In this document: one piece after another, positions 4,233 to 59,410 of the stretch
How positions within the stretch are numbered: position 1 is the stretch's first letter
Layout of the letters: every line of letters starts with the position of its first letter
Virus record (IMG/VR): IMGVR_UViG_3300021399_000117
Span: 32,001 to 96,000 of that record
Strand: one strand, 5' to 3'
Length of the DNA stretch: 64,000 bases
DNA from: a virus
Lineage: Duplodnaviria > Caudoviricetes
The notes under the pieces: generated by a model
Told to the model about the DNA's origin: nothing
What the model saw: only the letters and a program-made list of their open reading frames with translations
Databases searched by the model: none
Program-made: the position numbers and the translations under genes

Positions 4233-4466
4233 ATGATCACTACTTTCAAAGAATATATAGCACAACAAATGGTAGGTAAGTCCTTCCATTTTATTTGCGA
4301 TTGTGTCTTTCCCATGGATTTCATAGGTACCATCAAAGGCTACGATGCATCCGGTAGTGAAATCATATTCAAAGTAGAGACTGGCAACAAAATGATTAAC
4401 ATTGGTGAGAACCATCCCAAATTAAAAGTAATACCAGTATGCGAGGCCTGTACGAAAGTATATTAG
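4233..4466 (+). CDS. Small protein with capsid-targeting-like leader (MITTFKEYIAQ)
   Basis: Leader resembles the T4 IPIII CTS MKTYQEFIAE; TTATTAT upstream. Confidence 0.6.
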   Translation: MITTFKEYIAQQMVGKSFHFICDCVFPMDFIGTIKGYDASGSEIIFKVETGNKMINIGENHPKLKVIPVCEACTKVY

Positions 4467-5749
4467 ATGATGAAGATACTATCCTATCTCGTTCGGATAG
4501 AGATGCTAATATGTTGATGTGGTCTGATATTTTGTTCGGTAGTGGGATGCTCAATAAGGGACAGTTTCGTATCAAACCCGGAAGTGACAAGGATAAGTTC
4601 AAATTGGAATACTTTGGTCAAGAATATACAGTTATTCCGATCAAGTTTCTATCAGAAAGATTATACGAACATTTTAGAAAAGGATGTGAAGGTATTTATA
4701 TATATGCTCGAAACATGATAGAGATGATGATAGGGTTTGATTTCGACTTTGACACCCTACCCCATTTTTACGATCTGGAAGGGGATGGATATGATGACCC
4801 ATTCAGAATAGGCACCACTCACATCAATCTTACTAATAACACATATACCTTGCGTAATCTGAACCCAGAAAACCTAGGAATCAATAAGAAAACAACTAAA
4901 AGCACTATATTAAAGATATTTCGCAAAATAGAGCGTGCAGATGTGACTTTCAAAGATTTTCGTTGGGATGCGCCTTATGCTGAGGTGATACTCGAAAATA
5001 TCCGCATAAAAAACACTAAACATATCGAATTGCCTGTTCGCAAAATTACAACATCCAATGTCGATGTGGACAACGCCGCAGATGATGAAACGAAAGAAAT
5101 ATGCATACTTTCGCATGTTCGCGGAGATAGAAGCACAACCGATCAAATATCGTTTAATAATGGTGTATTAAAATTGATTGATACAACTACATCATACACC
5201 GTGCGCGGCAGTTTATCAGGCATTGGAATCAAGTCTATAGTCGGGGACGGAGCAATTATGCGTAATATGCTTACCACTGACGTTCATCTTGTATCCTCAC
5301 TGAAAAAATTATGTGTAATACCATCAACTCAGAAATACATAACATTCGATACCTATAGAAATAAACCAAAAATACTGAACTATAGTCTTCATCGAGAGGT
5401 TGGTAGTGTGCTGCCAAAGATGAAATTCCGCGCCTGGTGTGACACCTCTCATGACAAAGAAAATTGGAAAGACTGGGATGATGTGTCTTGTCTCAATTTT
5501 GTATTCTATGTAGAACGCGGCGCTCTGGATCAAGTACAATCCAATTGTGTACTGATTCGTTTCGCAGATGCCTCTTCACAGATAGTCTCGGATATTCAAA
5601 AATTGTTGAAAAAACATCGTTATATTTCCGACGAAGAACTGGAGACAGTGATACCCCTATCCAATTTCGACAATCTGAAGTTCATCGTTTGGAGCGCTGG
5701 ATCGGGTGAAGGTATAGTAAAGACACCAAAAGGATGGTGCATGAAATAA
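4439..5749 (+). CDS. Hypothetical protein with LYESILDD leader (putative internal head protein)
   Basis: 436 aa ORF; N-terminus MRGLYESILDDEDTIL shared with several other ORFs. Confidence 0.7.
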   Translation: MRGLYESILDDEDTILSRSDRDANMLMWSDILFGSGMLNKGQFRIKPGSDKDKFKLEYFGQEYTVIPIKFLSERLYEHFRKGCEGIYIYARNMIEMMIGFDFDFDTLPHFYDLEGDGYDDPFRIGTTHINLTNNTYTLRNLNPENLGINKKTTKSTILKIFRKIERADVTFKDFRWDAPYAEVILENIRIKNTKHIELPVRKITTSNVDVDNAADDETKEICILSHVRGDRSTTDQISFNNGVLKLIDTTTSYTVRGSLSGIGIKSIVGDGAIMRNMLTTDVHLVSSLKKLCVIPSTQKYITFDTYRNKPKILNYSLHREVGSVLPKMKFRAWCDTSHDKENWKDWDDVSCLNFVFYVERGALDQVQSNCVLIRFADASSQIVSDIQKLLKKHRYISDEELETVIPLSNFDNLKFIVWSAGSGEGIVKTPKGWCMK

Positions 5750-5762
5750 ATATGTATATATA

Positions 5763-5849
5763 AAAATCTTTGATATAAACGAAGATCTCCTTTGGGGTAA
5801 TAAATTATATACCTTGAAGGAGATCTTTTGTTATACTCGAAATAATCGC
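5763..5849. repeat. ~88-bp hairpin-containing element, copy 1 (convergent junction)
   Basis: Flanks match the reverse complement of 54291-54378 at 18/19 and 31/32 nt. Confidence 0.85.
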
Positions 5850-5863
5850 ACAATATGGATCAT

Positions 5864-6106
5864 TTAACGATTAGTGTATGCGTAATCTTTAAAGTGCTGC
5901 ATACGTTGAGTGAACTTCATGAGTACGATGAATGAGTTTTCCACAAACTTAAGCAGGTACTGGAACGTCTTGTTTTTTGCCTGCACAATAGTCTGTGACA
6001 TCACTTTGCTAAAGAAGCCGTGACGTTCATAATCGTAGGGTTGGTTCTTTTTGGACTCCCAACTTTCATAATCGTAGAATCTATGTCCGTTTGGATAGGT
6101 TTCCAT
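5864..6106 (-). CDS. Hypothetical protein (last gene of tail/baseplate operon)
   Basis: Directly follows the gp5-like gene. Confidence 0.65.
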   Translation of the reverse strand: METYPNGHRFYDYESWESKKNQPYDYERHGFFSKVMSQTIVQAKNKTFQYLLKFVENSFIVLMKFTQRMQHFKDYAYTNR

Positions 6107-6109
6107 ATA

Positions 6110-13276: not shown

Positions 13277-13294
13277 TAGAAAAGAGAATACTAT

Positions 13295-13573: not shown

Positions 13574-13587
13574 ACATTCGAACACAT

Positions 13588-21732: not shown

Positions 21733-21921
21733 TTATTCTTCTTCTCCTGCTTTTTTGGATTTCCTCTTACGATGTGGGTGTTCCTTTTTTGTTTTGGCTG
21801 TTAGTGGTTCAGACCCTTTCCCGTCCCCATCATCAGCAGTAGGATTACCCATACCTGGAGTATTACCTGGAGTGGCGTTGTTGCCGCATTCTTCTTCTAT
21901 ATAATCAAACAATCTTTTCAT
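21733..21921 (-). CDS. Small protein with capsid-targeting-like leader (MKRLFDYIEE)
   Basis: Leader motif, TTATTAT upstream, basic C-terminus. Confidence 0.6.
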   Translation of the reverse strand: MKRLFDYIEEECGNNATPGNTPGMGNPTADDGDGKGSEPLTAKTKKEHPHRKRKSKKAGEEE

Positions 21922-33484: not shown

Positions 33485-34030
33485 TTAGTAGATTGCATTT
33501 TGTTTTTTGACATCAGGGCAAGCCTTGTGTATATCTTTCCATTCGAACTCTTTACCACAGTTAACCGCTTTGAATAACTTGTTCGCCTTTTTTGGACACC
33601 CATCTAGTGATTTAAGTTTTGGGCAGTTGGTTATTGAGAATGTATCCACTTCTTCGGGTAGTTTAGGCAACTCTTCTAAGTTAGGGCAACCAGATATCAT
33701 CACTATCGGTGTGTGAGATGGAATGATCCGTTGTGGAATGATTTTACCGTCATATCCTTTGATAAACAAGCGGTTGCATCTCATGATGGTGGGAATCAAT
33801 TCTGGAATACTGCGTTCGGTGTCTTTCTTGGTCAAAATTATCTCACCAAGATCATCTATGAGACCATGCTGACCTTCAGGACCATCTTCAGTGCCGACAT
33901 ATCTACGACTCTTGAAACCGTGATTCTGCAGCCAACCGTAACCAGCCTCCTTCTTGATTTCATCGCTTTGTTCAACTTTGCCGAGGATATCGTCTTCGTT
34001 GTCTAATATGCTTTCAAATAGGTCTTTCAT
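33485..34030 (-). CDS. Leader-bearing protein with short Cys-LRR repeats
   Basis: MKDLFESILDNE leader; CPNLEELPKLP and CPKLKSLDGCPK repeats. Confidence 0.7.
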   Translation of the reverse strand: MKDLFESILDNEDDILGKVEQSDEIKKEAGYGWLQNHGFKSRRYVGTEDGPEGQHGLIDDLGEIILTKKDTERSIPELIPTIMRCNRLFIKGYDGKIIPQRIIPSHTPIVMISGCPNLEELPKLPEEVDTFSITNCPKLKSLDGCPKKANKLFKAVNCGKEFEWKDIHKACPDVKKQNAIY

Positions 34031-40395: not shown

Positions 40396-40577
40396 GCAGA
40401 AAACCACGGCACAATCCAAACAAGCCTGCCAACCGTAGGAGTCCTCACTGTCCCTGCTACGAAATAATCAACGGCAAATGTTATTGCACAAGTAACGGCC
40501 CGACAAATCCTAAGTGCGAAGGCAACATTCATAACTGTGTCAAAGTTCAGTATCAACAATTAGCAACAATAAAATGA
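40392..40577 (+). CDS. Small Cys-rich basic protein
   Basis: ATGA overlaps at both ends; six cysteines. Confidence 0.55.
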   Translation: MSRKPRHNPNKPANRRSPHCPCYEIINGKCYCTSNGPTNPKCEGNIHNCVKVQYQQLATIK

Positions 40578-41134
40578 GTATAACAGATTTGAAAAACTTC
40601 CCTTTCGAACACGACGGACAAGAGTTCTGGTATAGTCGTTCGATTGTATCCTGCGGATATGTGTTCTGTTACTGGTACAACACCTGGCATGTCCTAGCTG
40701 TCAAACGGGGCGCTACACAAACCCTACCCAAACAATGGAACGTGCCCGGAGGATTCCTGGATCACAACGAGACGACACAGCATGCTGCCAAACGAGAGGT
40801 AGCTGAAGAAACAGGCCTCCCATTAGCTACGCGCGATTTTCATTTGTTCAGTGTCAATTCAACCCCAACAGGTAAGAAACAGCATGTGCTCTTCAACTAC
40901 TACTGTAATATAGGTAAGGTAAAAGAGTTGCCGTATTTGGATCCATCCAATTGTGAACCTGGTGAAGTAGAACACGCTATGTGGATACCTGTAGAAGCCG
41001 TCAAAAAGTTCAAATGGATCAATGCACAGTGGGTGAATATTGAATATGTATTCAACACGTACATTCATCCTAGTCTTTGGCAACGCATTCGTAATCGCCT
41101 AAGTAATCAAATAGATATCGTGTGGGGTATATAA
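40574..41134 (+). CDS. Nudix hydrolase
   Basis: GGFLDHNETTQHAAKREVAEETGL Nudix box. Confidence 0.92.
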   Translation: MSITDLKNFPFEHDGQEFWYSRSIVSCGYVFCYWYNTWHVLAVKRGATQTLPKQWNVPGGFLDHNETTQHAAKREVAEETGLPLATRDFHLFSVNSTPTGKKQHVLFNYYCNIGKVKELPYLDPSNCEPGEVEHAMWIPVEAVKKFKWINAQWVNIEYVFNTYIHPSLWQRIRNRLSNQIDIVWGI

Positions 41135-41181
41135 AACTCTGTACGATTTTTTATATATTTATATGATAATCCATTATATAT

Positions 41182-41775
41182 ATGCAAATCAGAAAAGAGT
41201 TTAGAGTAGAAAGCGCACACATAGTGCGAAACTGCACCTCCGAACGTTGTTCTCATTCGATTCACGGACACAGTGCTGTGATTGAAGTCATCTTCGAAGG
41301 TCGTCAATTGGACAACGCTCAAATGCTCGTAGACTTCGGTTTGATGAAAGGCAGCATCAAGCAGTTTATCGATTCTATGGATCACTGCTATCTGCTCTGT
41401 TCACATGACAAACCTGAGTTCCGTGAGTTTATCAAAAAGAATTGCGATCGATACATTGAGTTGCCGTTCAATCCGAGCGCAGAGATGTTGTCTATGTTCA
41501 TCATGATCGGTGTACAACGTATCTTGGACATGACCGAGTTCAATAACGGTGAAGAAACACCTGTACGAGTAGCAAGTGTTCGTTATCATGAGACCACCAC
41601 GGGTTATGCACAGTGTGATCTAACAGATTGTGTGAACTACGAAAACACCATCGATTTCGATTTCGTTGAGTTCTCTGACGGTGTCAAGAAAGACTGGTCA
41701 CCGGAACTTCGTGAGGCTCTGGAACTAGGTCATCCTATTGTCAATCCAATCGTTGAACGTCAAATTGATCTGTAA
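41182..41775 (+). CDS. queD: 6-carboxy-5,6,7,8-tetrahydropterin synthase QueD
   Basis: ESAH..C..HGH, VDFG, DH, NPSAE, HET. Confidence 0.92.
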   Translation: MQIRKEFRVESAHIVRNCTSERCSHSIHGHSAVIEVIFEGRQLDNAQMLVDFGLMKGSIKQFIDSMDHCYLLCSHDKPEFREFIKKNCDRYIELPFNPSAEMLSMFIMIGVQRILDMTEFNNGEETPVRVASVRYHETTTGYAQCDLTDCVNYENTIDFDFVEFSDGVKKDWSPELREALELGHPIVNPIVERQIDL

Positions 41776-41776
41776 T

Positions 41777-42595
41777 ATGCTGCCAGTAGTAGAAATGTTC
41801 ACTAGTATTCAGGGGGAAGGAAAGTACGCCGGAATACCGAGTCACTTCGTAAGAGTGAGTGGTTGTAATCTTCGCTGTGTCTTTAAGGACAGCGTGTGTG
41901 ACACACCATATTCCTCATTCAAGCCAGAAAAGCCTATCGCCAAAGACCTAGAGGAACTGGTGCGTCTATTCAAAGAACTCCAAGAGAAGTCTCCAAAGGT
42001 TAAACACCTGGTCATTACCGGGGGAGAACCCCTGATGTACGCGAAAGACCTGGATATGTTCCTCCGCCATATCTATGATGACGAGATGGTCATTACCATC
42101 GAAACCAACGGAACCTATCCGGTCCTGAATCCGCTGAGCCCGTACTTCAAGATCGCGCTCTATAGTGTATCTCCGAAACTCGCCACCAGCGTTGGTAAAC
42201 CGGGTATGTACGGCAAGAACGGCAATATCGAAGTCACCCAGCAAATGGTAGACCGTCACAATCAATTGAGGATCGATCCGCAGAACCTGGTAGACATTGT
42301 GATGAACGCCAATGACTATCAGTTCAAGTTCGTGTATAGCGGGCCTGAGTGTGTTGATGAGATTATGGACATCTATTCACGAATGGGTGCTATTGCTGAG
42401 AAGTACGACCCGTTTATGGTCAGCTTCTATTTGAAGAACCACCCCAACAAACACACTATGTTGATGCCAGAGGGTATTACCAATGAGCAACTCGCAGCCA
42501 AACGTCAAGAGATTGCAAATATTTGTATTCAACGGGGATGGACATACACCGATCGTATCCACATCATTATCTGGGGAGATAAGAGAGGGGTGTAA
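41777..42595 (+). CDS. queE: 7-carboxy-7-deazaguanine synthase QueE (radical SAM)
   Basis: EMFTSIQGEG, GCNLRC....CDT, ITGGEP, IETNG, SPKL, KFV, R.H...WG. Confidence 0.93.
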   Translation: MLPVVEMFTSIQGEGKYAGIPSHFVRVSGCNLRCVFKDSVCDTPYSSFKPEKPIAKDLEELVRLFKELQEKSPKVKHLVITGGEPLMYAKDLDMFLRHIYDDEMVITIETNGTYPVLNPLSPYFKIALYSVSPKLATSVGKPGMYGKNGNIEVTQQMVDRHNQLRIDPQNLVDIVMNANDYQFKFVYSGPECVDEIMDIYSRMGAIAEKYDPFMVSFYLKNHPNKHTMLMPEGITNEQLAAKRQEIANICIQRGWTYTDRIHIIIWGDKRGV

Positions 42596-42667
42596 TGAAT
42601 AAGAAGTATATGGACAATAGATTTAACTGTCCAAAGTGCGGCCATCAAGAAGAAATCACTGACTAAC

Positions 42668-43495
42668 ATGAAAACAAACTGTGAATTACCATTATGCATG
42701 ATGGACAAGAATTTGGAATTGAATGATTTCGATTTCGTTTTGTTCCATCTATATCAGTCTAACAAGACCTATCGCGAGTACTATCAGAAGATGAGAGTAG
42801 AACATCCGGAACGACTCATGATCCTGGACAACTCTGCGTACGAGTTCTTCGTCAAAGGAGAAAAACTGGATATGCTCCAATTCAAAAATACCATCAAGGA
42901 ACTCAAGCCGGATTACTACATCTTGCCAGATGTACTCCAAGACAAAGAGAAGACACTGCATGGTGTTCGGGAGTTCTTGACGTGTTATGCGGATAAAGAC
43001 ATGGTGTCCAAACCACTAGCTGTAGCACAAGGTAACACCAGTATAGAATTGGTAGAGTGTTTCCAAGAGTATCTCGGACTGGGTATCGAATATGTAGGAG
43101 TGCCATTTCACTTGGAGTTCTACAAGCACATGCATATAGAAGATGACATCCTGTTCGAGTTTGGAACGTCTTATGGAGAGACAAAATTCACAGACGGTGA
43201 AGACTATAAGTACGCGATAGGTCGTGTTCAGTGGGTGCGTGGACATGAGGAACTGTTGAAACGGTTCGACAAAGTGCATATGCTCGGATCACATTGTCCG
43301 TTGGAGAAAGTATTTTACCACGACTTCTATTCTATGGACACTGGGTATCCAGTCAAATTAGGATACGAGAAGACATTATTAGGATTCGAAGATCACAAAC
43401 CCGCATCTATCATAGATGATTTCATTGATGCGGAGTTGTCTCGCACTAAGAAACACTGCATTGAGTCCAATGTCAAAACATTCCGAGATCTCTGA
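42668..43495 (+). CDS. dpdA: DpdA/TGT-like 7-deazaguanine DNA transglycosylase (putative)
   Basis: ILDNSAYE, LPDV, VAQG, HMLG and SMDT motifs of the TGT barrel; adjacent to queD and queE. Confidence 0.65.
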   Translation: MKTNCELPLCMMDKNLELNDFDFVLFHLYQSNKTYREYYQKMRVEHPERLMILDNSAYEFFVKGEKLDMLQFKNTIKELKPDYYILPDVLQDKEKTLHGVREFLTCYADKDMVSKPLAVAQGNTSIELVECFQEYLGLGIEYVGVPFHLEFYKHMHIEDDILFEFGTSYGETKFTDGEDYKYAIGRVQWVRGHEELLKRFDKVHMLGSHCPLEKVFYHDFYSMDTGYPVKLGYEKTLLGFEDHKPASIIDDFIDAELSRTKKHCIESNVKTFRDL

Positions 43496-43525
43496 TTATT
43501 ATTGTAAAAAAAATATACATATAAT

Positions 43526-45004
43526 ATGAAGTCATTAAAGGATACGATATTGGAACAATTTGATTCGAAACCGACCCTAACCCATACAGGATTTCAAATT
43601 TTGCACCCATTGACTGAATATCTGCTTAATGAAGACAAATATGTCGGCTCTTCTGATCAAGCTATATATGCTCGGTTGGGAATGCACAAATATAATCACT
43701 TGCCCAAAAATAAACAAGAAGAGGTTAAACGGCATTTTCCTGGAGCTCCAGGTAATAAATCTGCTTTGGCCCGATGGTTCAAATCTGTCAATGGCAAATT
43801 AGTACCTAACCAATACGAGTTTATTGGGAGATCTGATTGGAACATGTTAGACCAGATCGGAGAAATCGAAAATTCTTTAATGGCTCCCCACAAATGGTCA
43901 TATTTTGAACTGATTCGGAAAAATCCTAGACCGAAGAAGAACAAGATACTTACTGTTTTGGAATGTTCCAATTCTAAACCATATTGTCAGGATTCTGCAA
44001 AAAAGTGGTACTTTAAACGGTTCAGATCGTTTACCGATTTTGCTTGCGGCGCGTATGGTATAGTACCGGAAGAATATTCACAATTGTATCCGGTACGTGA
44101 GGATGAATGGGCACATAGCGATGAGTCGGAATCTGTAGCATTCAAATACAATTTGATTTCCTGTAACCGTGGGTATCAATATATCAAAGATATGGGTTAC
44201 GAGAAGGTGATTGTATTCTTCCAAAATCCTGCGCCAGAGGAGTTCATGCGATGGATGAAAAATATGCCCGGCATGGAGGATAAACTGATCTTCGTCATTA
44301 CTCCGCAATTAGTGGACAAACTTAAAAAACATTACCCTCAATTAGGTAACGGTCTAATCATCACACGAATGATGATGCTCTCAGAGGTTCATGAGGCATA
44401 TATGAATGCTTTAAGCAAGTGTTTGTCCGGTGAGGATCGAGAAAGGTTTAACGAGATCAAAAAACTGGTCAATGACGAGGATAAAACTGGTCAAAAGAAG
44501 TGGATTGAGGATACCAACCAAAAATTCGGAATCGAGGAATACCGGGTAGACAGACCAGGCTGGGAGGTAAAACTTGCTAAAGGTGATATAAATATACACA
44601 GTCGTACATCAGATGTAACACAGAAAAAAGTCGATGAGATTTCTAATTGGATTTCGTCCTGGGTTGAAAAACAAAACGAAAAAGACATCAAAAAAGACAA
44701 GATAGACTGGTACAAAGAACGTCTGATATTTACCCCGCTAGATCTTATCATCGATCATTACGAACTGGGAGAGAAGAATCCAAAAAAATTGGATATCGAC
44801 GAGGAGTATTGGAACGTGATGGCTGCGCTAGAAAAACACGCTCAAGAATGGGGTATAAAAAGGGTCAACCCTGATAAGTATCACAGATATGATTATTTGT
44901 GGTGTTTCGAAAGGGTGTGCAAAGAGGTTAAAAAAGATGATATGATCGAATATTGCGACAAAACTGGCTTGTCCCAATTTTATCAAAATGTATTAGACAG
45001 ATAA
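43526..45004 (+). CDS. ArcS-like (DUF5591-type domain) protein with capsid-targeting-like leader
   Basis: VLECSNSKPY and YGIVPEEYSQLYP resemble ArcS LPCS..KPY and LGIVPRELE..YP; leader MKSLKDTILE. Confidence 0.6.
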   Translation: MKSLKDTILEQFDSKPTLTHTGFQILHPLTEYLLNEDKYVGSSDQAIYARLGMHKYNHLPKNKQEEVKRHFPGAPGNKSALARWFKSVNGKLVPNQYEFIGRSDWNMLDQIGEIENSLMAPHKWSYFELIRKNPRPKKNKILTVLECSNSKPYCQDSAKKWYFKRFRSFTDFACGAYGIVPEEYSQLYPVREDEWAHSDESESVAFKYNLISCNRGYQYIKDMGYEKVIVFFQNPAPEEFMRWMKNMPGMEDKLIFVITPQLVDKLKKHYPQLGNGLIITRMMMLSEVHEAYMNALSKCLSGEDRERFNEIKKLVNDEDKTGQKKWIEDTNQKFGIEEYRVDRPGWEVKLAKGDINIHSRTSDVTQKKVDEISNWISSWVEKQNEKDIKKDKIDWYKERLIFTPLDLIIDHYELGEKNPKKLDIDEEYWNVMAALEKHAQEWGIKRVNPDKYHRYDYLWCFERVCKEVKKDDMIEYCDKTGLSQFYQNVLDR

Positions 45005-45558
45005 TGAGAAACCTTTACGAAAGCATATTAGATGACGAATTGGATGTCATGGCTAAAGGTGATAAGGGTGGAGAGCGTTTGCTTCATGCATATGACATGA
45101 TGAAGATGTTGGTAGATCATCTGGATATCGTTCGCAAGGAGGGTGCTGATGACCCAACACAAACATCATACAAGTGCCCACTGTACTTCAAATTCAGAAA
45201 TGGATTGAATGATCCGTTCGGAACGGTTCGTAAGCGCCTCGCGGACTTCAAGAACGATATGAAGAAGTATCCTGAGTTCAAGATAAACATTCATACTACC
45301 AGCAAGAAGGAATCCATGACTACACCAGGTCAGAGACGGGAGTATGGCGTGGGTCTGATGTATAATCTCATTAAGAGATACAATATCGCGATCGAAGAAG
45401 GCAAAAAGATGTTCGGTACTATCGATATCACAATCGAACAGTACGACTTCAACAAAGAACTACACGCCTCTAAGATGAACATATATGTTATGGCAAGTGG
45501 GTTCGATTACAGAGACCTATACCGGGTTATACTAGACCAAATGGATAGCAAAAAATGA
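45004..45558 (+). CDS. Hypothetical protein with MRNLYESILDD leader
   Basis: Start at 45004 overlaps the previous TAA; leader motif. Confidence 0.7.
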   Translation: MRNLYESILDDELDVMAKGDKGGERLLHAYDMMKMLVDHLDIVRKEGADDPTQTSYKCPLYFKFRNGLNDPFGTVRKRLADFKNDMKKYPEFKINIHTTSKKESMTTPGQRREYGVGLMYNLIKRYNIAIEEGKKMFGTIDITIEQYDFNKELHASKMNIYVMASGFDYRDLYRVILDQMDSKK

Positions 45559-45567: not shown

Positions 45568-45888
45568 ATGAAAGGACTTTCAGAGACACTTAAGGAATCA
45601 CTCGAAGTGAATGAAGCCAAGCAGGTGCTTGCAAATACGATTCAGTGGGAGGCAGATAAGGATGCAGCATACACCACTCTCGACGCAGCTGACGGCATCA
45701 AGAAGTTCAAGCATGCATTCCTTTCTTATAACCAATACGAAGGTGCCATCTTCGTAGTTGCGTTCAATTCAATCGAGGCTTACCAAGAGCTACTCGACAC
45801 GGATGATGATGAGTACTCAGAACTCCTCAGTATGAAACCACAGGATACTAAGGTAATCAATAACGTATCCTATATCTGTCTAAAATAA
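45568..45888 (+). CDS. Hypothetical protein with MKGLSETLKESLEVNE leader
   Basis: Leader motif. Confidence 0.7.
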   Translation: MKGLSETLKESLEVNEAKQVLANTIQWEADKDAAYTTLDAADGIKKFKHAFLSYNQYEGAIFVVAFNSIEAYQELLDTDDDEYSELLSMKPQDTKVINNVSYICLK

Positions 45889-47106: not shown

Positions 47107-47715
47107 ATGAAAAATTTAAGCGACTGCATTAAAGAATCGATCAACGAAAGTTCTAATAAAATGACAGCCATTTGGTCCCACGAAGATCCGGATACTATAT
47201 ATTTTATCAAAAATATGTCCAGAGACCAATACAAGCGCCTTCGGAATACAGATTGGAACTGGGACGACATTGATGTAAAAGAGCCTATCGCATTCTGCGG
47301 ACACAATGACGAATCAATTCGAATAACTGGCGTTGCTGCATCTAATTTGGTTGGTCTCAAAAAATTGATCTCCAAAGACATCGCACAAAACATTCAGGAG
47401 ATGATCGATGCTGGAGAAGTGTACGATGAAGTTATATTCTATTCACTGGACGAGGACGAATGGAGCCTCAAAGATTTTCGCGATGCTAAAGAGGTTGAAG
47501 ATCTTAAGAAGATCAACCCAGATCGTGCTGCTGAAAAATGGTTGAAAGGCCTAGAAGACACCGAGGTGGACGGAGATAGTTCACGCGCATACTATTTTGT
47601 AGATCTCAGAAAAGGTGAACAGATCGCTGGTAGCGAACATATAAGTGTTGTGTTTGCTGACCTTGAAGAAGATGAAGATATACGTCATAGCATCCTTGGG
47701 TATGACGAAGACTAA
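47107..47715 (+). CDS. Acidic hypothetical protein with MKNLSDCIKESINE leader
   Basis: Leader motif; TTATTGT variant upstream. Confidence 0.7.
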   Translation: MKNLSDCIKESINESSNKMTAIWSHEDPDTIYFIKNMSRDQYKRLRNTDWNWDDIDVKEPIAFCGHNDESIRITGVAASNLVGLKKLISKDIAQNIQEMIDAGEVYDEVIFYSLDEDEWSLKDFRDAKEVEDLKKINPDRAAEKWLKGLEDTEVDGDSSRAYYFVDLRKGEQIAGSEHISVVFADLEEDEDIRHSILGYDED

Positions 47716-49601: not shown

Positions 49602-49633
49602 ATCATAGCCACTTCCTGTTTATTATTTATATC

Positions 49634-50701
49634 ATGAAACAATTATCCACATATCTAATGGAGCACGTCGCACCTATCTTTGAGGGTGGTGCCGGAGGTC
49701 ATATGCTCCATCCATATCTCCTCAACTGGGTGAAGTCTGGTAAGGACCTCATCAAGTTCTATGAGTCGGTTGCCAAGAATATGGAGAACTTGAACGCCAG
49801 CATGAAGATTGATGGTGTCAATGTATCTATCCGTATGGTAGACGGTGAGTTCGTTTTCGACCGCATGTCTCCAAAGGACATCGAAGGTATTAAGAAAGAC
49901 CAACTCGCTGATCGATTTGGTGCAGGACATGGTCTTGTTAAGATGGGTGGTCTCGTACTCGATATATTCAACTCATGTATTGATTCATGTAAGTCCGAAC
50001 TCAAACAGTTAGGTCTGTTAGATGACGAGACTATATTATTCAATATAGAGTATGTCGACAAAAACACCAACCTCATCTCCTACAGTAACAGCTTCCTAGC
50101 CATTCATGGCTTGCTCAAGTTCGAAGTGAACGGCAAAAACCGCACCACTCACGAAGTAAACTATGACCAGAAGACATTGGATAATCTCATCGAAAAGCTC
50201 AACAAAGCATCAGCTAAATACGGCTTCGATGTAGTAGGCTCAGTTGGTATCGAAATCAAGCGTAAACCTGATCTCAATAAGGTGCTCAAGGAGTCACTCA
50301 CTATCAACGCATTTGGTGAGCCTGGTAGCAAAACAATCGAAGAGTGGTTGAATGACATCAACGAGTTCGATGTGACCAAATATGCTACTACGTTCAGCCT
50401 CGGTCGCATCAGTGTCATCTCACATAAAGCATACGTTGCTTGCACCAACGTTGATGTACCTCTCAACAGTGTATTCAAGAAGGAACAAGACATACCTAAC
50501 ATCATCAACAGCTTCATCATCTACGAAGCCAACAGACGTTTCGGTGACGAGATACTTAGTTGTATAGACAGCAAGATTGGTGCAGGTAATGATAATGAAG
50601 GTATCGTTGTTCGTAACAAGTCAATCACCAAGACAGATGCTCCAGTCAAGATTACCGGTAGCTTCTCTATCAATATAGCAAATTCACGTTTCGCAAAATG
50701 A
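49634..50701 (+). CDS. Leader-bearing protein with ligase-like KxDG motif
   Basis: MKQLSTYLME..IFEGGAGGHMLHP; SMKIDGVN, NIEY, NEGIVV and PVKITG resemble covalent nucleotidyltransferase motifs I, III, IV and V. Confidence 0.55.
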   Translation: MKQLSTYLMEHVAPIFEGGAGGHMLHPYLLNWVKSGKDLIKFYESVAKNMENLNASMKIDGVNVSIRMVDGEFVFDRMSPKDIEGIKKDQLADRFGAGHGLVKMGGLVLDIFNSCIDSCKSELKQLGLLDDETILFNIEYVDKNTNLISYSNSFLAIHGLLKFEVNGKNRTTHEVNYDQKTLDNLIEKLNKASAKYGFDVVGSVGIEIKRKPDLNKVLKESLTINAFGEPGSKTIEEWLNDINEFDVTKYATTFSLGRISVISHKAYVACTNVDVPLNSVFKKEQDIPNIINSFIIYEANRRFGDEILSCIDSKIGAGNDNEGIVVRNKSITKTDAPVKITGSFSINIANSRFAK

Positions 50702-51543
50702 AAAGTCTATATCAATTCATACTCGAAGGGGGTCATGCAGTAACAGCATCACCAATCCCAGCAGAGATGTCCATGCCTATCTATAAGGAGATCGAGGCAA
50801 AGCTCTTGGAGACAGCACATACACTCCAAGGTCACATTGCTGTTCTAGGTTCAGTAGGCAAAAAGAAGAAAGGTGATTACAATGGGGATATCGATGTTGC
50901 TATCGAGTTCAACCGTCACCAATTCGAGGAGATACTTAAGAAGACCTTCCCGGATGCTGAATACGCGAAGGCTTCTATGCCGAATATCGTTTCTATCAAC
51001 TACCCATACGATTACAAAGGTCGCACATCATATGCTCAGGTAGACTTTATGATAGTGGATGACTTGGAGTGGGCACTATTCGTATATAACTCTCCAGACT
51101 TCACAATCGATGAGTCACACTACAAGGCCGCTATCCGCAACCATCTGTTGAGTATAATGATATCCGAGGTGCCTACAGGTGAGGCAGATCAGGTCAACGA
51201 TAAGGGCGAGGTAGAGACCCGTTGGAAACACTCACTGAACTTCGCATTCGGTGTGACCAAGCAGTTCCTCGATTACAGAGGACGTAATGGTTTGCTCAAG
51301 AACCCGAAGAAAGTCAAGGAGTTCGAGCAGGTAGTAACCAAGAACAAAAAGGAGTTCATCGAACTGCTATTTGATGGTGGTAAGGATGAGGACTTCAAGA
51401 GTCTCGAGACCCTTTGGAAGGCACTTCATACCAAATACAAATACCAGGATCGTATAGGTACTATCGAAGACCGCTTCTACGTTGAAGTACTCGAACGTAA
51501 CGGTCTCGATCGCGATGAGTTCCTAAAATATATCAATCAGTAA
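50698..51543 (+). CDS. Leader-bearing Pol-beta-superfamily nucleotidyltransferase
   Basis: MKSLYQFILEGG; LGSVG....GDIDVAI and QVDFM catalytic pattern. Confidence 0.7.
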   Translation: MKSLYQFILEGGHAVTASPIPAEMSMPIYKEIEAKLLETAHTLQGHIAVLGSVGKKKKGDYNGDIDVAIEFNRHQFEEILKKTFPDAEYAKASMPNIVSINYPYDYKGRTSYAQVDFMIVDDLEWALFVYNSPDFTIDESHYKAAIRNHLLSIMISEVPTGEADQVNDKGEVETRWKHSLNFAFGVTKQFLDYRGRNGLLKNPKKVKEFEQVVTKNKKEFIELLFDGGKDEDFKSLETLWKALHTKYKYQDRIGTIEDRFYVEVLERNGLDRDEFLKYINQ

Positions 51544-53090
51544 TGCAAAGTCTATCAAACTACTTAATAGAAAATCTGCATCCTATATTCGAGCGCGGAC
51601 GTAGCAATGCTTCCAAAGAGACCATGATTCAGGAGCTGATGACCTGCGTGTTCTTCGATGCATACTTCAATCAGAATGAGAACTTCTCGAAGGTTGAGGA
51701 TATCATCGAATACTACAACAAGGTCAAGGATTCTGTGATAACCAAACTCTGTGTGAGTGGTCTCAAGATTAAGGACTTCGATGAGTTCTTATTGGAGACA
51801 GAGCTAAAGGGTCGTGGTAATAATAAGGAAGAGCGCTATACCAAGAAGGCGTTGGATTGGCAAAAGTCATTCCTATATCAATGCGAATCCTTTGATAACT
51901 GGTTGAAGGACCACAAATCATTCCCAGCAAAGAACCTGGTATTCCTCCATCACGACACTTCACTAGGTGTACGTAATGGTCAAGTATCTTCGGGATGGTC
52001 ACTAGCGGATCGTGTTGATAAGGGTGTGTCAAAGGCAGGTTATTCACGCAAAGACGATTACCAAAAGGCTGACATTTATGCACTCACTCAAAATGTTGCA
52101 GATAAACCTATGGATGATCTTGCTCAGGAATTGTTATACTGGCAACAGGCTATCGATGGTTCAACAACTCCGTTTGTAGGCATATCACTAAAACAATTGA
52201 TAAAGCCATTATCACATATCCACACCTATAATATGGATAAACTATCCATTTCGATAGACGAAAAAACTATCAAATTATACCTTCCTGTATTTGATGGTGT
52301 GCAGTTTACGAAGATCGATCAACCACTCAAGACGGGTGGCACATCTGCCAAATTTTCATTTGACGCTACCCTGGGTGACGATACTATGAATTTTATATTG
52401 GATATTCGAACAGCATCATCCAGTGCAAGAAGTCGATTGTTCAATAGTGAAAAGAAAGATAACAAAAACGCTTACGACTGCTTCAATGTCACTGTTGGAA
52501 CTCAGTTGAATTCAGCCAAAGTCGGTGGTCAATTAGGTCGAGCACAAGACTTGCTGCAAAAATGGGCGAAAGAAACACACACCGAATATACTGGGGCCGT
52601 CAAATACAATCGTACAGCCAAAGAAAGTGTGTGGGCTGACGCAATGACATTCAATAAGCGCTTGCAAGACATTACCGCGCCTATGATGAAGTACCACATC
52701 AATGGTGATGTACCTAAAATATCTGGTGGTGCAGCTGCGTTGATTGATTGGGTGGCAGTCAATGCTGATGTGATTTTCGATATGTTCACTGATTACAACA
52801 ATGCTGAAGGTAAAACAAGTGCACGAGGTTGGAATGAGGTATTGATTCCATATGGGGAGAAATTAGGGTTTGATATAAACGAATCCAATTACGAAGAGAT
52901 ACTCATTAACATATTTGAAGCGGTCAAATGGAAATCTGCATCATGGAATATATTGTCCATATTGCGAGTGCTGTTTGCCAAGATGAAAAATGCTGATGCA
53001 TCAACCGTATTAAGTCAGATAGCTATGTTTGCCAAAGGCATCAGTTTCGATTCTGACAAAGTCCATCTACCTTATGTGATGATAGGATAA
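51543..53090 (+). CDS. Leader-bearing PD-(D/E)xK-like nuclease (putative)
   Basis: MQSLSNYLIE; QELMT...KADIY...GISLKQ restriction-endonuclease-like pattern. Confidence 0.5.
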   Translation: MQSLSNYLIENLHPIFERGRSNASKETMIQELMTCVFFDAYFNQNENFSKVEDIIEYYNKVKDSVITKLCVSGLKIKDFDEFLLETELKGRGNNKEERYTKKALDWQKSFLYQCESFDNWLKDHKSFPAKNLVFLHHDTSLGVRNGQVSSGWSLADRVDKGVSKAGYSRKDDYQKADIYALTQNVADKPMDDLAQELLYWQQAIDGSTTPFVGISLKQLIKPLSHIHTYNMDKLSISIDEKTIKLYLPVFDGVQFTKIDQPLKTGGTSAKFSFDATLGDDTMNFILDIRTASSSARSRLFNSEKKDNKNAYDCFNVTVGTQLNSAKVGGQLGRAQDLLQKWAKETHTEYTGAVKYNRTAKESVWADAMTFNKRLQDITAPMMKYHINGDVPKISGGAAALIDWVAVNADVIFDMFTDYNNAEGKTSARGWNEVLIPYGEKLGFDINESNYEEILINIFEAVKWKSASWNILSILRVLFAKMKNADASTVLSQIAMFAKGISFDSDKVHLPYVMIG

Positions 53091-53193: not shown

Positions 53194-53224
53194 TTATATA
53201 TATACAACACAGAAATTAAAGTAT

Positions 53225-54277: not shown

Positions 54278-54290
54278 ATCGATATAAAGC

Positions 54291-54378
54291 GCGATTATTT
54301 CGAGTATAATAAAAGATCTCCTGGATACCTTATAAAGTATTCAGGAGATGTTTTTGATGCGTTTAAATCAAAGATTTT
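54291..54378. repeat. ~88-bp hairpin-containing element, copy 2 (inverted)
   Basis: Reverse complement matches 5763-5849. Confidence 0.85.
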
Positions 54379-54790
54379 AGGATACGTAGTGTTCGTATGC
54401 ATCCACACATAGTTGCTCTGCTTCGGCATCTTTGCGATCCTCGCGGTAGAATCCTATGCGTAATTCGGGGTTGGCACCTACATCCTCGGATACTTCTATA
54501 TACATACCCAGATTATTGAACATGAGTGTGAAGTATTCTTCAGAAGACAGATCCATGGTAACCTGCGAACGATTCTTTCGATGTATCGATTCAAATTCAT
54601 TTTCGATATCGTAAAACAAGTCTTCAGAATAAACGTAGTTGACACAAACACCATCGTTACGACTTACCTCTTTGACACGACTCTTCTTGACATACTCTTT
54701 GATGGTGTCAATAACCTTATAGAGCAAGTCTTTGTCGTTCATAGAAGCCTCGTTCAAGGATTCGTTTATGCATTCTGTAAGTGATTTCAT
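54377..54790 (-). CDS. Hypothetical protein with MKSLTECINESLNE leader
   Basis: Leader motif. Confidence 0.7.
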   Translation of the reverse strand: MKSLTECINESLNEASMNDKDLLYKVIDTIKEYVKKSRVKEVSRNDGVCVNYVYSEDLFYDIENEFESIHRKNRSQVTMDLSSEEYFTLMFNNLGMYIEVSEDVGANPELRIGFYREDRKDAEAEQLCVDAYEHYVS

Positions 54791-54808
54791 GTTATGATAT
54801 TTATTTAG

Positions 54809-55411
54809 TTATTTAGTAGGAACAGGCTTGAACTCAATTGGGTTAGCCATACGGCAGTAGTACGATCCTAGCACATCAGGGAGGGCTCGAGTCTCAAATC
54901 CTACGAACAAGCAGTTCCAGATTTTGGCTACTCGGATCTTCCAAGCATCGGCATCAGCCTTACGTTGGTCAGAAACGAAATCTGTTCCTTTGCGACGACA
55001 GAAACAATTGTACACCGAACTCAAATAGAAATCCGGTTCAGGATTGTCTTCCAACGAAAGAGTGATCTTGTGAACGTATGTATTGAAACCTGAATAATCA
55101 ATGGTCTCTGTGTACGTACCCCAGCCAGATATAGTATAGGTGATGGTAGAGGTAATGCCACCAGCACCGTTTTGTTTTTCAGTACGGACTTTGTTGCCCC
55201 AGATTAGCTTGAGTGATTCAGGGAAATTACCTGACCAGAATGCCTTGACAGCATCGCGTGCTTTTTCTTTGGTGATGCCTAGTTCGGCTTGACGTGCATC
55301 CAGGCGCTTGAGGAACTTCTTGGTCTCTTCGGTGCGCCAGTCATTACCTTGCACCTCAAAATCAGAGGATAGTTTTTCGGTTATTCGTTTTGCTTCGTTT
55401 ATACTTTGCAT
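54809..55411 (-). CDS. Hypothetical protein with MQSINEA leader
   Basis: INE|A and ITE|K putative cleavage sites. Confidence 0.65.
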   Translation of the reverse strand: MQSINEAKRITEKLSSDFEVQGNDWRTEETKKFLKRLDARQAELGITKEKARDAVKAFWSGNFPESLKLIWGNKVRTEKQNGAGGITSTITYTISGWGTYTETIDYSGFNTYVHKITLSLEDNPEPDFYLSSVYNCFCRRKGTDFVSDQRKADADAWKIRVAKIWNCLFVGFETRALPDVLGSYYCRMANPIEFKPVPTK

Positions 55412-55429
55412 ACACGGAGTTGGTTTTTT

Positions 55430-55969
55430 TTAGAGTAGGTCTTCGAAAGAAGCCATCAGCGCGCGGACATATGTCTTGTATGGACTCTTCAGATTACGGA
55501 TTGCGTCCACAATCTTATCGTACTGTGGTGAATTCATGAGAGCGCGGAACTTCCTTTCCATCTCATCATCCCACATATCTTGTGCTTCTGTCTCGGCGTT
55601 ATCTGCTAGATCATCAGGATCGTCTCCGTTTTCTACTGCAATCTGGAATACCTTCCAAGGGTTCCAAGCATCATCAGGTAGTTTATCACAGAGCTTGCGA
55701 AGAACGTCCTCATCGTGTCCTTCGACAACCAGGCTTTCGTTCAAACATTCTTGTAATGATTTCATAGTATGTCTTTCTATGTTTATTGATTCTTCAAAAT
55801 GTTCCTTGAGACCTTTGGTTTTCGCAAAGTCCTCTAGTTGTTTGTCAGTCATATCGGAATTGACGATTTTCATCACTTCATCATCTACCTCTGACTTGTT
55901 CATATCGCCTTTGCGTACGGCGAGTGCCATAGCGAACAAGGCGCGTTGTGCTTTTGATTTTGCTGGCAT
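55430..55969 (-). CDS. DUF3008-like N-terminal domain fused to a second leader-bearing domain
   Basis: MPAKSKAQ..A.A..KG...MTDKQLEDFAKT; internal MKSLQECLNESLVVEG. Confidence 0.6.
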   Translation of the reverse strand: MPAKSKAQRALFAMALAVRKGDMNKSEVDDEVMKIVNSDMTDKQLEDFAKTKGLKEHFEESINIERHTMKSLQECLNESLVVEGHDEDVLRKLCDKLPDDAWNPWKVFQIAVENGDDPDDLADNAETEAQDMWDDEMERKFRALMNSPQYDKIVDAIRNLKSPYKTYVRALMASFEDLL

Positions 55970-55985
55970 GATATAACTAATTGAT

Positions 55986-56783: not shown

Positions 56784-56799
56784 ATACCTTGTCAACAGG

Positions 56800-57552
56800 T
56801 TAATTTTGTGTGATGAAAGAATATATATGATTATTTAGCTTGTTCCAATAATATTTAGCAAGTTTCTTCTGCTTGTTTGTCATTTTTGGATTATCATTTA
56901 ACGCAGACATATATATGCTCTTATAAATTTTGTAATCATCGTAGTAACCTAATTTCTTATAGATATCTTTTACATCATACCTACCTTTAAGGTTTCTAAC
57001 ATATCTTTGAATGTTGTTCAAAAAACCTTCAACTTCGTCCTTGTCCAAATAATAACTGTAAAATTCGTCCGAGTCTGATTGCTTATCTAGATTTTTTTTG
57101 AACTTTTGTAAATATGCATTTACTCCATTATTTTTGTACTTTTGCCAATCTTGATATGCATGCTGCAATTCGTGTTGCAATGTTTCGGCTATTTCATATT
57201 CGTCAAAAAAACCAGGCTCAATATAATCATAATTCAACACTATATCAATCCAGTTAAATGTTTTATCTTCATCATTCCATTTACTGATTATATAATCATC
57301 ATCATCTTTTGATCCAACATAATACATCCCTTTGTAATTAACCTTATCAGATACTATTATCGTTATCTGTTTGAAAAATAATTGGGGAATACTATTAAAC
57401 GGACTTTCATCTAAGTCGAGGTAATAGTCACCATCACTTACATCTATTTCATCTATATGTTTTTTTATTTCATCTACTAAAATATCGACTACTTTTTCAG
57501 CCTGCTTAAACATACCAGTAGATTCAATCAAAACTTCATATAATGTTTTCAT
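56800..57552 (-). CDS. Leader-bearing HExxH zincin-like protein
   Basis: MKTLYEVLIE; TLQHELQHAYQD and downstream YY...EVE; AT-rich. Confidence 0.6.
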   Translation of the reverse strand: MKTLYEVLIESTGMFKQAEKVVDILVDEIKKHIDEIDVSDGDYYLDLDESPFNSIPQLFFKQITIIVSDKVNYKGMYYVGSKDDDDYIISKWNDEDKTFNWIDIVLNYDYIEPGFFDEYEIAETLQHELQHAYQDWQKYKNNGVNAYLQKFKKNLDKQSDSDEFYSYYLDKDEVEGFLNNIQRYVRNLKGRYDVKDIYKKLGYYDDYKIYKSIYMSALNDNPKMTNKQKKLAKYYWNKLNNHIYSFITQN

Positions 57553-57566
57553 ATATTATATATTAC

Positions 57567-57932
57567 TTATATTTTGATGGGCCATTTAATTTTACCATAT
57601 ATGCCGTCAACGTACACTTCTTCACCGCTCTCGATAACTTGACCCTTCTCGTATATAAATTGTTTGGCAATCAATCTTTTGCGTTTGATTCCGTATATAT
57701 AATAGCCTACTACAGGATATACTACATTACCGAAATTGAGAAAGATGTCACCAACATCCAATTTATTACCAAATGCATCTACATCGCGTTTTGTGGTGCG
57801 TTCTTCCGCAGACTTTGGAGCAATTTGTTTCATAGTTCGGACCAGTTCAGCTATTGTTTTTATGGCGTCCGTTTCAGCACCATTCATGATGTCTTCTGGA
57901 TTACCTAATATCGATTCCGTCAAGCTCTTCAT
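57567..57932 (-). CDS. Hypothetical protein with MKSLTESIL leader
   Basis: Leader; DAFGNKLDVGD (YorX-like) motif. Confidence 0.65.
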   Translation of the reverse strand: MKSLTESILGNPEDIMNGAETDAIKTIAELVRTMKQIAPKSAEERTTKRDVDAFGNKLDVGDIFLNFGNVVYPVVGYYIYGIKRKRLIAKQFIYEKGQVIESGEEVYVDGIYGKIKWPIKI

Positions 57933-57938
57933 AACTTA

Positions 57939-58250
57939 TTACCATTTATATCCAAGGTATGCTCCGACAGCAGTCAGTACCATGCGTGAAGTGAGTAATG
58001 AACCCAGTGTAGAACGGGTATCTATGCCTAAAGCCTTGCAAACAGCCTCCATGATAGACTTACCAGCAGTACCACCTATGACTCCGCCAACGATGCTAGA
58101 CAACAGTCCCTCATCTATGAGTTCAGCAACTGGCTTGCCTTCTGCCTGAGCTTTTTGTGATACTTCAATAATATAGTCTTTAAGAGTATTGGTATGCTCT
58201 TTAATCATGTTCTGATATTGAACGTCTTGGATTTCTTGAATAGAGTTCAT
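57939..58250 (-). CDS. Small glycine-zipper membrane protein
   Basis: LIDE|GLLSSIVGGVIGGTAG...LTAVGAYLG; TTATTAT upstream. Confidence 0.6.
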   Translation of the reverse strand: MNSIQEIQDVQYQNMIKEHTNTLKDYIIEVSQKAQAEGKPVAELIDEGLLSSIVGGVIGGTAGKSIMEAVCKALGIDTRSTLGSLLTSRMVLTAVGAYLGYKW

Positions 58251-58313
58251 ATATATATTCTATTTTTATATATAATAATATGTCTGAACTATATCATAGA
58301 ACAAAAAGTCTGA

Positions 58314-58880
58314 TCAACGGAACACAAAAACAGCATTCCCTTTATCGTCGAACTCCGGCTTTCTGTTGAACTTGTTAGCCAAGCGCTTTGCCCATTGTGT
58401 GTCACTGGTGGCGCCTACTTGAATAATCCGTGGTTTAGTATCCAAAGGATCATATTTGAACTTCATTATGGATGGAATTACAGCCGCGTTTTTAAGATCA
58501 TCAGGTTTGGCGATCTCGCCATTCTTTTTGTAATATGTTCTCCAATAACCATAGACCTCCACAGAATAGAATAGTCTATTTGCATGACGGTCAGACAAGG
58601 AACTGGTCACATACAGCTCGTATTTGATAGGAGCCTCTTCAACACATTTCTTACCAAGATATGTATTGAACCATTTGACTATTTCTATCCACTCATCATC
58701 ATGTGGTAACAAGTCGTGCTTTTTGATAGCGTCTTTTATATTACGTTTGACTCGAGGTGCGCTATATTCTTCACGCAGACCTTTTTTCAAAGGTCCCCAT
58801 ATCGATAAAAACATTTCTGCAGATTTATCGGCTTTGTCCATGATGTCACTATCTAATATGGATTCGTATAAGGTTTTCAT
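58314..58880 (-). CDS. Hypothetical protein with MKTLYESILD leader
   Basis: Leader; TTATTAT upstream. Confidence 0.7.
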   Translation of the reverse strand: MKTLYESILDSDIMDKADKSAEMFLSIWGPLKKGLREEYSAPRVKRNIKDAIKKHDLLPHDDEWIEIVKWFNTYLGKKCVEEAPIKYELYVTSSLSDRHANRLFYSVEVYGYWRTYYKKNGEIAKPDDLKNAAVIPSIMKFKYDPLDTKPRIIQVGATSDTQWAKRLANKFNRKPEFDDKGNAVFVFR

Positions 58881-58975
58881 GTATATATAATAATGTGATC
58901 AAACTCCGACATTAAAAAAGACCCAATCAAACGATCGAGTCTTTCGTATGGTATTTTGCTAGGTTACTTATCGGG

Positions 58976-59410
58976 TTAATCTAATTGATAAGGATTTACA
59001 TAGTAATAAATATAATTCTTAGTCGTTTTTCCTGGTTTTAATGATAGGGCATCTTCCAATTTCTTTATCCATTTTTCGTCGATATAATCTGATATAGGCA
59101 CCGCCAATACATTTCCAGTCCGGTTTGTTTGAAAAATATAAACATCTGTGGTCCCTCCATTATCGACACCTCCATCAACATCTTTTACATATTCATATCT
59201 CGCTTTATAACGCGAGTTAGCTAGTCTCCAATATGCGCCATTTATTGCAATACCCAATATATCCATATATCGGTCCAACTTCTCTAAATTTTTCTCAGAA
59301 CCACCTGCGAATAATATGTCAGATAGCTCCATTTTTATTCCAGCCTTGTCCTTTACTGAAATAGCTTCATTTGTCAGACTTTCTATAAGTACTTCACTTA
59401 AATTTTTCAT
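58976..59410 (-). CDS. Hypothetical protein with MKNLSEVLIESLTNE leader
   Basis: Likely start at 59410; leader motif. Confidence 0.7.
   Translation of the reverse strand: MKNLSEVLIESLTNEAISVKDKAGIKMELSDILFAGGSEKNLEKLDRYMDILGIAINGAYWRLANSRYKARYEYVKDVDGGVDNGGTTDVYIFQTNRTGNVLAVPISDYIDEKWIKKLEDALSLKPGKTTKNYIYYYVNPYQLD

Follow-up and report, generated by a model that had tools for sequence, protein, structure and literature searches.

A capsid targeting sequence (CTS) is said to have been recognized on the internal proteins (IPs) of phage T4 by Mullaney and Black in 1996. The T4 CTS is carried by IPI, IPII, IPIII, and Alt, and the prohead protease gp21 removes it (PMC3012670, PMC9026906). Specifically, the decapeptide MKTYQEFIAE is removed by cleavage, and any protein fused to the T4 CTS gets packaged (PMC8442874). 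In IPIII, residues 4 and 7 serve targeting, and residues 8 and 10 serve processing; Asp at position 10 stops processing, not targeting (PMC9026906). The internal proteins of T-even phages are diverse, with the CTS alone in common (PMC3012670). Here, we describe a leader of similar length at the N-termini of numerous proteins encoded by an uncultured virus, IMG/VR record IMGVR_UViG_3300021399_000117. The stretch analysed, called the window, comprises 64,000 nucleotides (record bases 32001-96000). We consider it probable that the leader constitutes a T4-type capsid-targeting propeptide system, expanded to approximately 30 proteins per genome and common to a clade of uncultured T4-like phages.

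A common N-terminal leader

Across the source record, a 131,565-bp linear virus with a CheckV completeness of 62%, 29 open reading frames (ORFs) carry the leader M-K-x-L-x-E-x-[IL]-x-[ED]. A strict regular expression fits 21 of the 170 gene starts called; over 2000 residue shuffles, the mean count is 0.14 and the highest is 2. Scores from a position-specific scoring matrix (PSSM) are distributed bimodally over the gene starts, and an expression written in the T4 register picks out 23 of the 29 leader proteins and not one of 129 other genes. The original prediction, which had varied and exchangeable proteins share one capsid-targeting leader, listed 19 N-termini in the window. All 19 are present at their coordinates. 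Under a looser register (M-[KRQ]-x-L-x-x-x-[ILVM]-x-[ED]), 17 of them are strong; those at 4233 and 55411 are weak and out of register.

Information content, calculated over 52 distinct leaders from this genome and from the relative G001 (IMGVR_UViG_3300021255_002784; 197.5 kb, with terminal repeats, complete), is high at M1, L4, K2, [ED]10, [IL]8, and E6. Beyond residue 12 it falls to background, and the leader unit is therefore approximately ten residues long. By position class, [LIVM]8 is combined with E10 in 20 of the 29 leaders, Asp occupies position 10 in six, and three are of other types. Leu and Ser codons in the leader vary synonymously and the upstream DNA is dissimilar among leader genes, which places the selection on the peptide.

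Beyond the leader, the proteins have little in common. An all-vs-all BLASTP comparison without the first 20 residues relates a single pair among the 29 (genome 100271 and genome 77568, the latter window 45568), in keeping with the earlier description of the ORFs as otherwise unrelated. Moreover, the leader is present on none of the identified proteins: exonuclease, SSB, primase-like, sigma-like, helicase, SbcC, capsid, sheath, fibres, and baseplate. No protein identified as acting in replication or transcription has the motif, nor has any identified shell or tail protein. The pattern extends to relatives: G001 has 30 leader genes among about 277, and a degenerate DNA version of the pattern is enriched in five relatives, with 19, 6, 7, 13, and 17 hits compared to 0, 2, 0, 2, and 1 in a reversed control.

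The N-termini of T4 proteins (taken from NC_000866; here and below, a slash marks the end of the signal or leader, or a junction) are MKTYQEFIAE/A for IPII and IPIII, MAKINELLRE/S for gp24, MLKEQLIAE/A for gp22, MEGLIEAIKS for gp67, and MKTFKEF...ITE/A for IPI. The leader shares with the T4 CTS a ten-residue length at the extreme N-terminus, a hydrophobic residue at position 4, Glu at 6, [IL] at 8, Glu at 10, and a small residue thereafter. Also shared are the gp21 motif [LI]-x-E at its end, unrelated bearers, and the company of an S77 protease and a T4-type major capsid protein (MCP), with a T4-type portal in G001. The invariant leader positions 4, 8, and 10 coincide with functional residues of IPIII, and some leaders of relatives, such as MKSLVEFITE in G005, agree with the T4 decapeptide in 7 of 10 residues. 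Tyr at position 4 keeps the score of T4 IPII/IPIII under the PSSM from this phage down to 0.4; the likeness lies in register, not in score. In T4 itself, gp61.1 (NC_000866 18966-19130), a 54-aa hypothetical protein encoded beside the primase gene, starts with the CTS-like MKTFKEFIKE; it is not named as a T4 head protein in the literature consulted on T4 heads.

The leader ORFs and associated features, in window coordinates unless stated otherwise, are as follows (aa, amino acids; nt, nucleotides; TTATTAT, a promoter element treated in the next section).

4439-5749, plus strand: leader ORF, 436 aa, MRGLYESILD, Asp-10 subclass
21733-21921, minus strand: leader ORF, 62 aa, MKRLFDYIEE; TTATTAT 27 nt upstream; G001 orthologue at 87%
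31988-32431, minus strand: leader ORF, 147 aa, MKSLYESILD; alternative MMKS start at 32434
32431-33483, minus strand: leader ORF, 350 aa, MRDLIEIINE; start overlaps the upstream stop
33485-34030, minus strand: leader ORF, 181 aa, MKDLFESILD; first in a TTATTAT unit (34056)
43496-43502, plus strand: example of the TTATTAT element, late-type, common to MCP, sheath, protease, and fibre genes
43526-45004, plus strand: leader ORF, 492 aa, MKSLKDTILE; ArcS-like (DUF5591); TTATTAT at 43496
45004-45558, plus strand: leader ORF, 184 aa, MRNLYESILD
45568-45888, plus strand: leader ORF, 106 aa, MKGLSETLKE; paralogue of genome 100271
47107-47715, plus strand: leader ORF, 202 aa, MKNLSDCIKE
49634-50701, plus strand: leader ORF, 355 aa, MKQLSTYLME...PIFE/GGAGGHM; predicted RNA-ligase-like nucleotidyltransferase; TTATTAT at 49620
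50698-51543, plus strand: leader ORF, 281 aa, MKSLYQFILE/GG; possible Pol-beta-type nucleotidyltransferase (NTase), a lead only
51543-53090, plus strand: leader ORF, 515 aa, MQSLSNYLIE...PIFE/R; D...SxK signature, a nuclease-like lead
54377-54790, minus strand: leader ORF, 137 aa, MKSLTECINE
55430-55765, minus strand: leader ORF, 111 aa, MKSLQECLNE; absent from the original list
56800-57552, minus strand: leader ORF, 250 aa, MKTLYEVLIE
57567-57932, minus strand: leader ORF, 121 aa, MKSLTESILG; Gly at position 10
58314-58880, minus strand: leader ORF, 188 aa, MKTLYESILD; TTATTAT 13 nt upstream
58976-59410, minus strand: leader ORF, 144 aa, MKNLSEVLIE; in the TTATTAT unit at 60716, downstream of baseplate/fibre genes
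4233-4466, plus strand: weak candidate, 77 aa, MITTFKEYIA; out of register
54809-55411, minus strand: weak candidate, 200 aa, MQSINEAKRI; only an I-N-E/A hexapeptide
Beyond the window: eleven leader ORFs, at genome 18894, 26086, 98522, 99094, 99316, 99877, 100271, 100656, 107839, 129114, and 130494

A longer ORF contains the start at 33483 as an internal Met, but this start is backed by a TAATG stop overlap and by the G001 orthologue. At 55430-55969 (minus strand), the open frame consists of a DUF3008 domain (28.8 bits) followed by the leader part from the internal Met at 55765; it is either a fusion or a single frame with two products. A DUF3008-like gene also adjoins the head module in an unrelated contig.

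Head machinery, promoters, and gene turnover

The genome encodes the type of protease that processes the T4 CTS. Specifically, a prohead protease gene outside the window (genome 102922-104349) specifies a Peptidase_S77 protein (PF03420, the family of T4 gp21; 35.9 bits against a 27-bit cut-off) that also matches the head maturation protease family phrog_207 (2.5e-37). In alignment with T4 gp21, the catalytic residues His85 (H85) and Ser140 (S140) fall in its LGELEHP and ISSR motifs. A Gp23-family MCP is encoded at genome 124121-125842; the MCP N-termini are left unaligned by BLAST. The genome also encodes a tail sheath. A T4-type portal (Portal_T4) is absent from the 131.5-kb fragment and present in the complete G001 (7.9e-81). 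The search for a separate gp22 homologue returned none, and the 536-aa product of a gene upstream of the protease gene matches nothing.

The protease itself may supply the scaffold. It is 475 aa long, compared to 212 aa in T4, and has 6.1 [LIV]xE sites per 100 aa, compared to 1.7 in other proteins. Its C-terminal extension of ~245 aa is made of about eight tandem units, PEVQKWVVEQYS, each ending aromatic-[IV]-x-E. The units are kept in all of the IMG/VR relatives and, in a looser form, in the Tenacibaculum phage PTm1, in which the protease gene is annotated as a scaffold-protease fusion. Judging from these repeats, the extension is probably a fused gp22-like scaffold that the protease dismantles. 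The unit ends resemble the ends of many leaders, and we infer that the extension may be the partner of the leader.

Expression of the leader genes appears to be tied to that of the structural genes. The heptamer TTATTAT lies 7-65 nt upstream of 28 genes, against 2.3 expected. We interpret TTATTAT as a late or structural promoter element because it precedes the MCP, sheath, protease, and fibre genes. As had been suggested, leader genes are concentrated in TTATTAT-headed units (19 of 25, compared to 64 of 146 other genes; p=0.004), and those outside such units are mostly artefacts of crude gene calls. In the window, a candidate reader of TTATTAT promoters is the 434-aa product of the gene at 25373-26677 (plus strand), which matches a family of phage RNA polymerase sigma factors (phrog_351, 1.5e-20).

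By protease similarity, the nearest named relatives are jumbo phages that infect Bacteroidota: the Tenacibaculum phages PTm1, PTm5, and pT24 (32-36% identity) come first, and PAU, the Lak phages, and PA5oct come next. IMG/VR holds closer relatives: protease identity is 95% for G001 and runs from 53% down to 42% for the remainder. A megablast search with 20 kb of the window found no match among cultured phages. The window has a GC content of 41% and no tRNA genes. The source is a distant, uncultured T4-like phage, and its host is probably a member of the Bacteroidota, not of the Enterobacteria.

Comparison with G001 shows how quickly the leader genes change. Whole cassettes of leader ORFs are gained, lost, or replaced between flanks of ~88% DNA identity. 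An orthologue in G001 exists for 14 of the 29 leader proteins, compared to 88 of 124 other proteins (p=0.028). Both observations agree with the idea, voiced at the outset, that the cargo is "hot-swappable." Separately, the G001 counterpart of 4439-5749 (G001 117490-117741) is an 83-aa ORF composed of the leader and the last ~67 residues, and thus records an internal deletion in a cargo gene.

The leader as an add-on and the nature of the cargo

Three unrelated cargo families, those of the 49634, 43526, and 51543 proteins, reveal where the leader sits. In each, homologues at 27-70% identity keep a variable leader ending [ILF]-x-E before the core. The 49634 protein has 239 homologues. The standalone forms possess varied N-terminal peptides of 9-19 residues that end [ILF]-x-E directly before an invariant GGAGGHM; examples are MKSLYQVILE/GG, MIKLNNILNEVIQE/GG, and MKTFKEYILNE/GG. 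Longer homologues, from other metagenomic phages, are fused behind a cytidylyltransferase (NMNAT-like) domain, and 47 of 47 keep [LIVMF]-x-E at the junction; many of these fused cytidylyltransferase-ligase forms hold an embedded Met-leader there. A separate cytidylyltransferase gene (genome 97971-98525) heads the leader array in the present genome. Homologues of the 43526 protein carry PF17884. The close ones have a leader ending just before a conserved DxxVGSSD, and the two most distant are without a leader; the 43526 protein itself has a second junction, YLLNE/D, ahead of its conserved core. Homologues of the 51543 protein, at 27-52% identity, present a leader-pattern N-terminus ahead of a conserved QELLTCVFFD.

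Structure prediction places the leader outside the fold. The AlphaFold2 models of the 49634 and 51543 proteins are confident (predicted local distance difference test, pLDDT, 87.9 and 87.6), with the leader modelled as a low-confidence short helix and linker; structural alignments begin at residue 19-20. A similar arrangement recurs in an independent T4-like contig, in which the ligase-like gene and its two upstream neighbours start MILLTRIVED, MISLTDLLLE, and MIKLNNILNE. Those three tagged genes lie between the sheath gene and the terminase-portal-protease-MCP genes.

Pfam and PHROGs searches with all leader proteins returned almost nothing, and nearly all of the cargo is ORFan. For the 49634 protein, fold and sequence support an RNA-ligase-like prediction. 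KIDG, EGIVVR, and K339 are invariant in 26 homologues. RNA ligases are the top Foldseek matches, with an E value of only 3.5e-3, and the top 17 VIA matches are all ligases, RNA ligases first (Z 8.2-5.8 over ~180 aligned residues). The protein has no Pfam match, and tblastn found no counterpart of it in 50,697 cultured phage records. For the 50698 protein, one atlas neighbour cluster has NTP_transf_2 in 33% of its members. The 51543 protein bears a D...SxK signature; "nuclease" is only a lead because its fold has no Foldseek match and VIA gives Z 3.6 or less, with several of the matches to PD-(D/E)xK nuclease domains. The protein at genome 98522 resembles polynucleotide kinase and HAD-like proteins by PHROGs (4.7e-11) and weakly by Pfam, a family match only. 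Of the functions named in the original prediction, ligase-like (from the fold and KxDG) and ArcS-like (from the DUF5591 domain) survive, and NTase and nuclease are reduced to leads.

A set of 7-deazaguanine DNA-modification genes occupies window 40574-43495, with a NUDIX gene (40574), QueD/PTPS (41182), and radical-SAM QueE (41738-42595). A 275-aa product at 42668 had been labelled a DpdA-like candidate and has no Pfam match. A probable QueC gene lies at genome 111107-112093. The leader-tagged DUF5591 protein directly follows the set.

Proposed mechanism, alternatives, and known systems

Because the leader matches the T4 load-then-clip signal, the tagged proteins are probably packed in the capsid. 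From the motif, its statistics, protein-level selection, head-gene context, and comparative pattern, we infer leader binding, cleavage, packaging, ejection, and any host role as follows. The tagged proteins would be expressed late, alongside the structural proteins. Through the leader they would attach to the prohead scaffolding core, here seemingly the C-terminal extension of the protease, rich in W-[IV]-[VT]-E repeats. Next, the gp21-type serine protease (Peptidase_S77) would clip after Glu-10 (P3 Ile or Leu, P1 Glu) or, alternatively, at a second [ILF]-x-E site immediately ahead of the folded core, and the mature protein would remain in the DNA-containing head. On the T4 model, the Asp-10 subclass (ESILD, 6 of 29) would be loaded and not clipped at position 10. 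Part of the cargo would presumably be ejected into the host with the DNA, and the smallest proteins encoded beside the protease may be degraded core components, like gp67 and gp68. The cargo set would be modular, with quick turnover between related phages.

Anti-defence roles for the cargo are conjecture. A bolder notion, which we advance tentatively and consider unlikely, is that the capsid is loaded with a nucleic-acid multi-enzyme toolkit that is injected before gene expression and pre-empts RNA/tRNA-cutting or DNA-targeting defences. Its members would be the RNA-ligase-like enzyme, the nucleotidyltransferase, the PD-(D/E)xK-like protein, the HAD/PNK-like phosphatase, and the ArcS-like DUF5591 protein. 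In the same notion, the leader mimics and co-assembles with the W-[IV]-x-E repeats of the protease-scaffold, and the junction motif lets modules fuse into, or be cut from, polyproteins in related phages.

Several points weigh against a T4-type capsid-targeting system. The 29-30 tagged proteins far exceed T4's handful. The cargo is not basic, as T4 IPs are; its median pI is 6.2. Large enzymes of 492 and 515 aa, such as the DUF5591 ArcS-like protein encoded beside the deazaguanine genes, are not obviously useful in a capsid. Position 10 is Asp in 6 of the 29 leaders and neither Asp nor Glu in 3. A second [LIVMF]xE site is not significantly enriched at residues 11-30 (p=0.39), which lends no support to a general second cleavage site in that interval. 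Part of the [ILF]-x-E conservation before the cores could stem from the folded domains themselves. Nor is the promoter link confined to leader genes, given that 64 of 146 other genes also lie in TTATTAT units, and PTm1, the nearest cultured relative, shows only weak pattern enrichment. On balance, the proposal that varied, exchangeable proteins share a capsid-targeting leader is partly borne out: it gains from the protease, the register, the promoter, the clustering, the turnover, and the pre-core position, and loses on the charge of the cargo.

Other explanations of the leader deserve weighing. The leader could be the mark of protease substrates and of prohead-core or scaffold-accessory proteins, all broken down and expelled at maturation like T4 gp67, gp68, and gp22; it would then serve head assembly, not delivery. 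The arrangement of the genes speaks for this possibility: consecutive small leader ORFs, six here and nine in G001, stand directly upstream of the protease gene, the position of T4 genes 67 and 68. T4 gp67 also begins in the same register (MEGLIEAIKS), and many cargo proteins are small ORFans. However, folded enzymes of 281-515 aa, with confident AlphaFold2 models and conserved catalytic-type motifs, are unlikely scaffold filler, rapid turnover in close relatives is unexpected for assembly parts, and many leader genes lie dispersed at a distance from the head module. We regard an assembly-only role as distinctly unlikely.

Very unlikely, in our estimation, is a leader unrelated to the capsid that acts as a recognition tag for other machinery of the phage or the host, for example a chaperone, a modifying enzyme, a system of degradation or timing, or a different sorting route. 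The sole radical-SAM gene in both the fragment and the complete G001 is QueE in the deazaguanine cluster, and neither offers a candidate radical-SAM/SPASM maturase for the tag; the leader lacks the hydrophobic stretch needed for secretion. Its length, its register, and the residues with mapped functions agree with those of the T4 CTS, and S77 proteases accompany it within the head modules of independent lineages. Most improbable of all is an N-terminus without peptide function, whether a nucleotide-level start context in a host that does not use Shine-Dalgarno sequences or a scar of cassette-swapping recombination: the genes do lack Shine-Dalgarno sequences and start in A/T-rich contexts, and cassette breakpoints relative to G001 fall at ORF boundaries near leaders, but Leu/Ser codons vary while the residues stay, homologues from other lineages (27-50% identity) preserve the pattern in different residues, 129 other genes of the genome are without the leader, and the pattern survives internally in fused proteins.

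If the T4-type capsid-targeting system is real, the internal and injected virion proteome of an uncultured, probably Bacteroidota-infecting, T4-like clade becomes readable from sequence. Approximately 30 proteins per genome would be flagged as candidates for anti-defence or host takeover, nearly all without known relatives and including at least one RNA-ligase-like enzyme. The T4 CTS principle would be old, widespread, and scalable. We suggest a general route for mining metagenomic phages for delivered proteins, and a source of alternative packaging tags for phage engineering.

How does this arrangement compare with described systems? Relative to the T4 CTS, there are ~30 tagged proteins (11-17% of genes) in place of a handful, Leu in place of Tyr/Phe at position 4, a sizeable Asp-10 subclass, and a scaffold seemingly fused to the protease. 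The predicted cargo is not basic and includes enzymes of 280-515 aa. The polymorphic IP loci of T-even phages (Repoila et al. 1994, cited in PMC3012670) likewise consist of diverse proteins that share only the CTS and are exchanged among close relatives; here, the arrays are larger and occupy several genome loci, and the host is probably a member of the Bacteroidota.

In the giant phages phiKZ, 201phi2-1, and SPN3US, many internal head proteins are cut after Glu by a gp21-related protease, and their propeptides are inferred to target proteins into the prohead (PMC5694885). Those propeptides are mostly longer than 100 residues, with the motif [AGS]-x-E and without a common decapeptide (PMC5694885), whereas the tag in the present phage is short, uniform, and T4-like. 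The Dar proteins of P1 (PMC9024508, PMC12810830) are anti-defence proteins that enter the capsid during assembly and are delivered with the DNA. Their incorporation, however, needs ordered partner proteins and involves no cleavable common decapeptide, and both lineage and protease differ. The principle is that of T4 and of the polymorphic T-even IP loci; the novelty lies in the scale, the predicted enzyme cargo, the Asp-10 subclass, and the motif that fused homologues from other metagenomic phages keep where their modules join.

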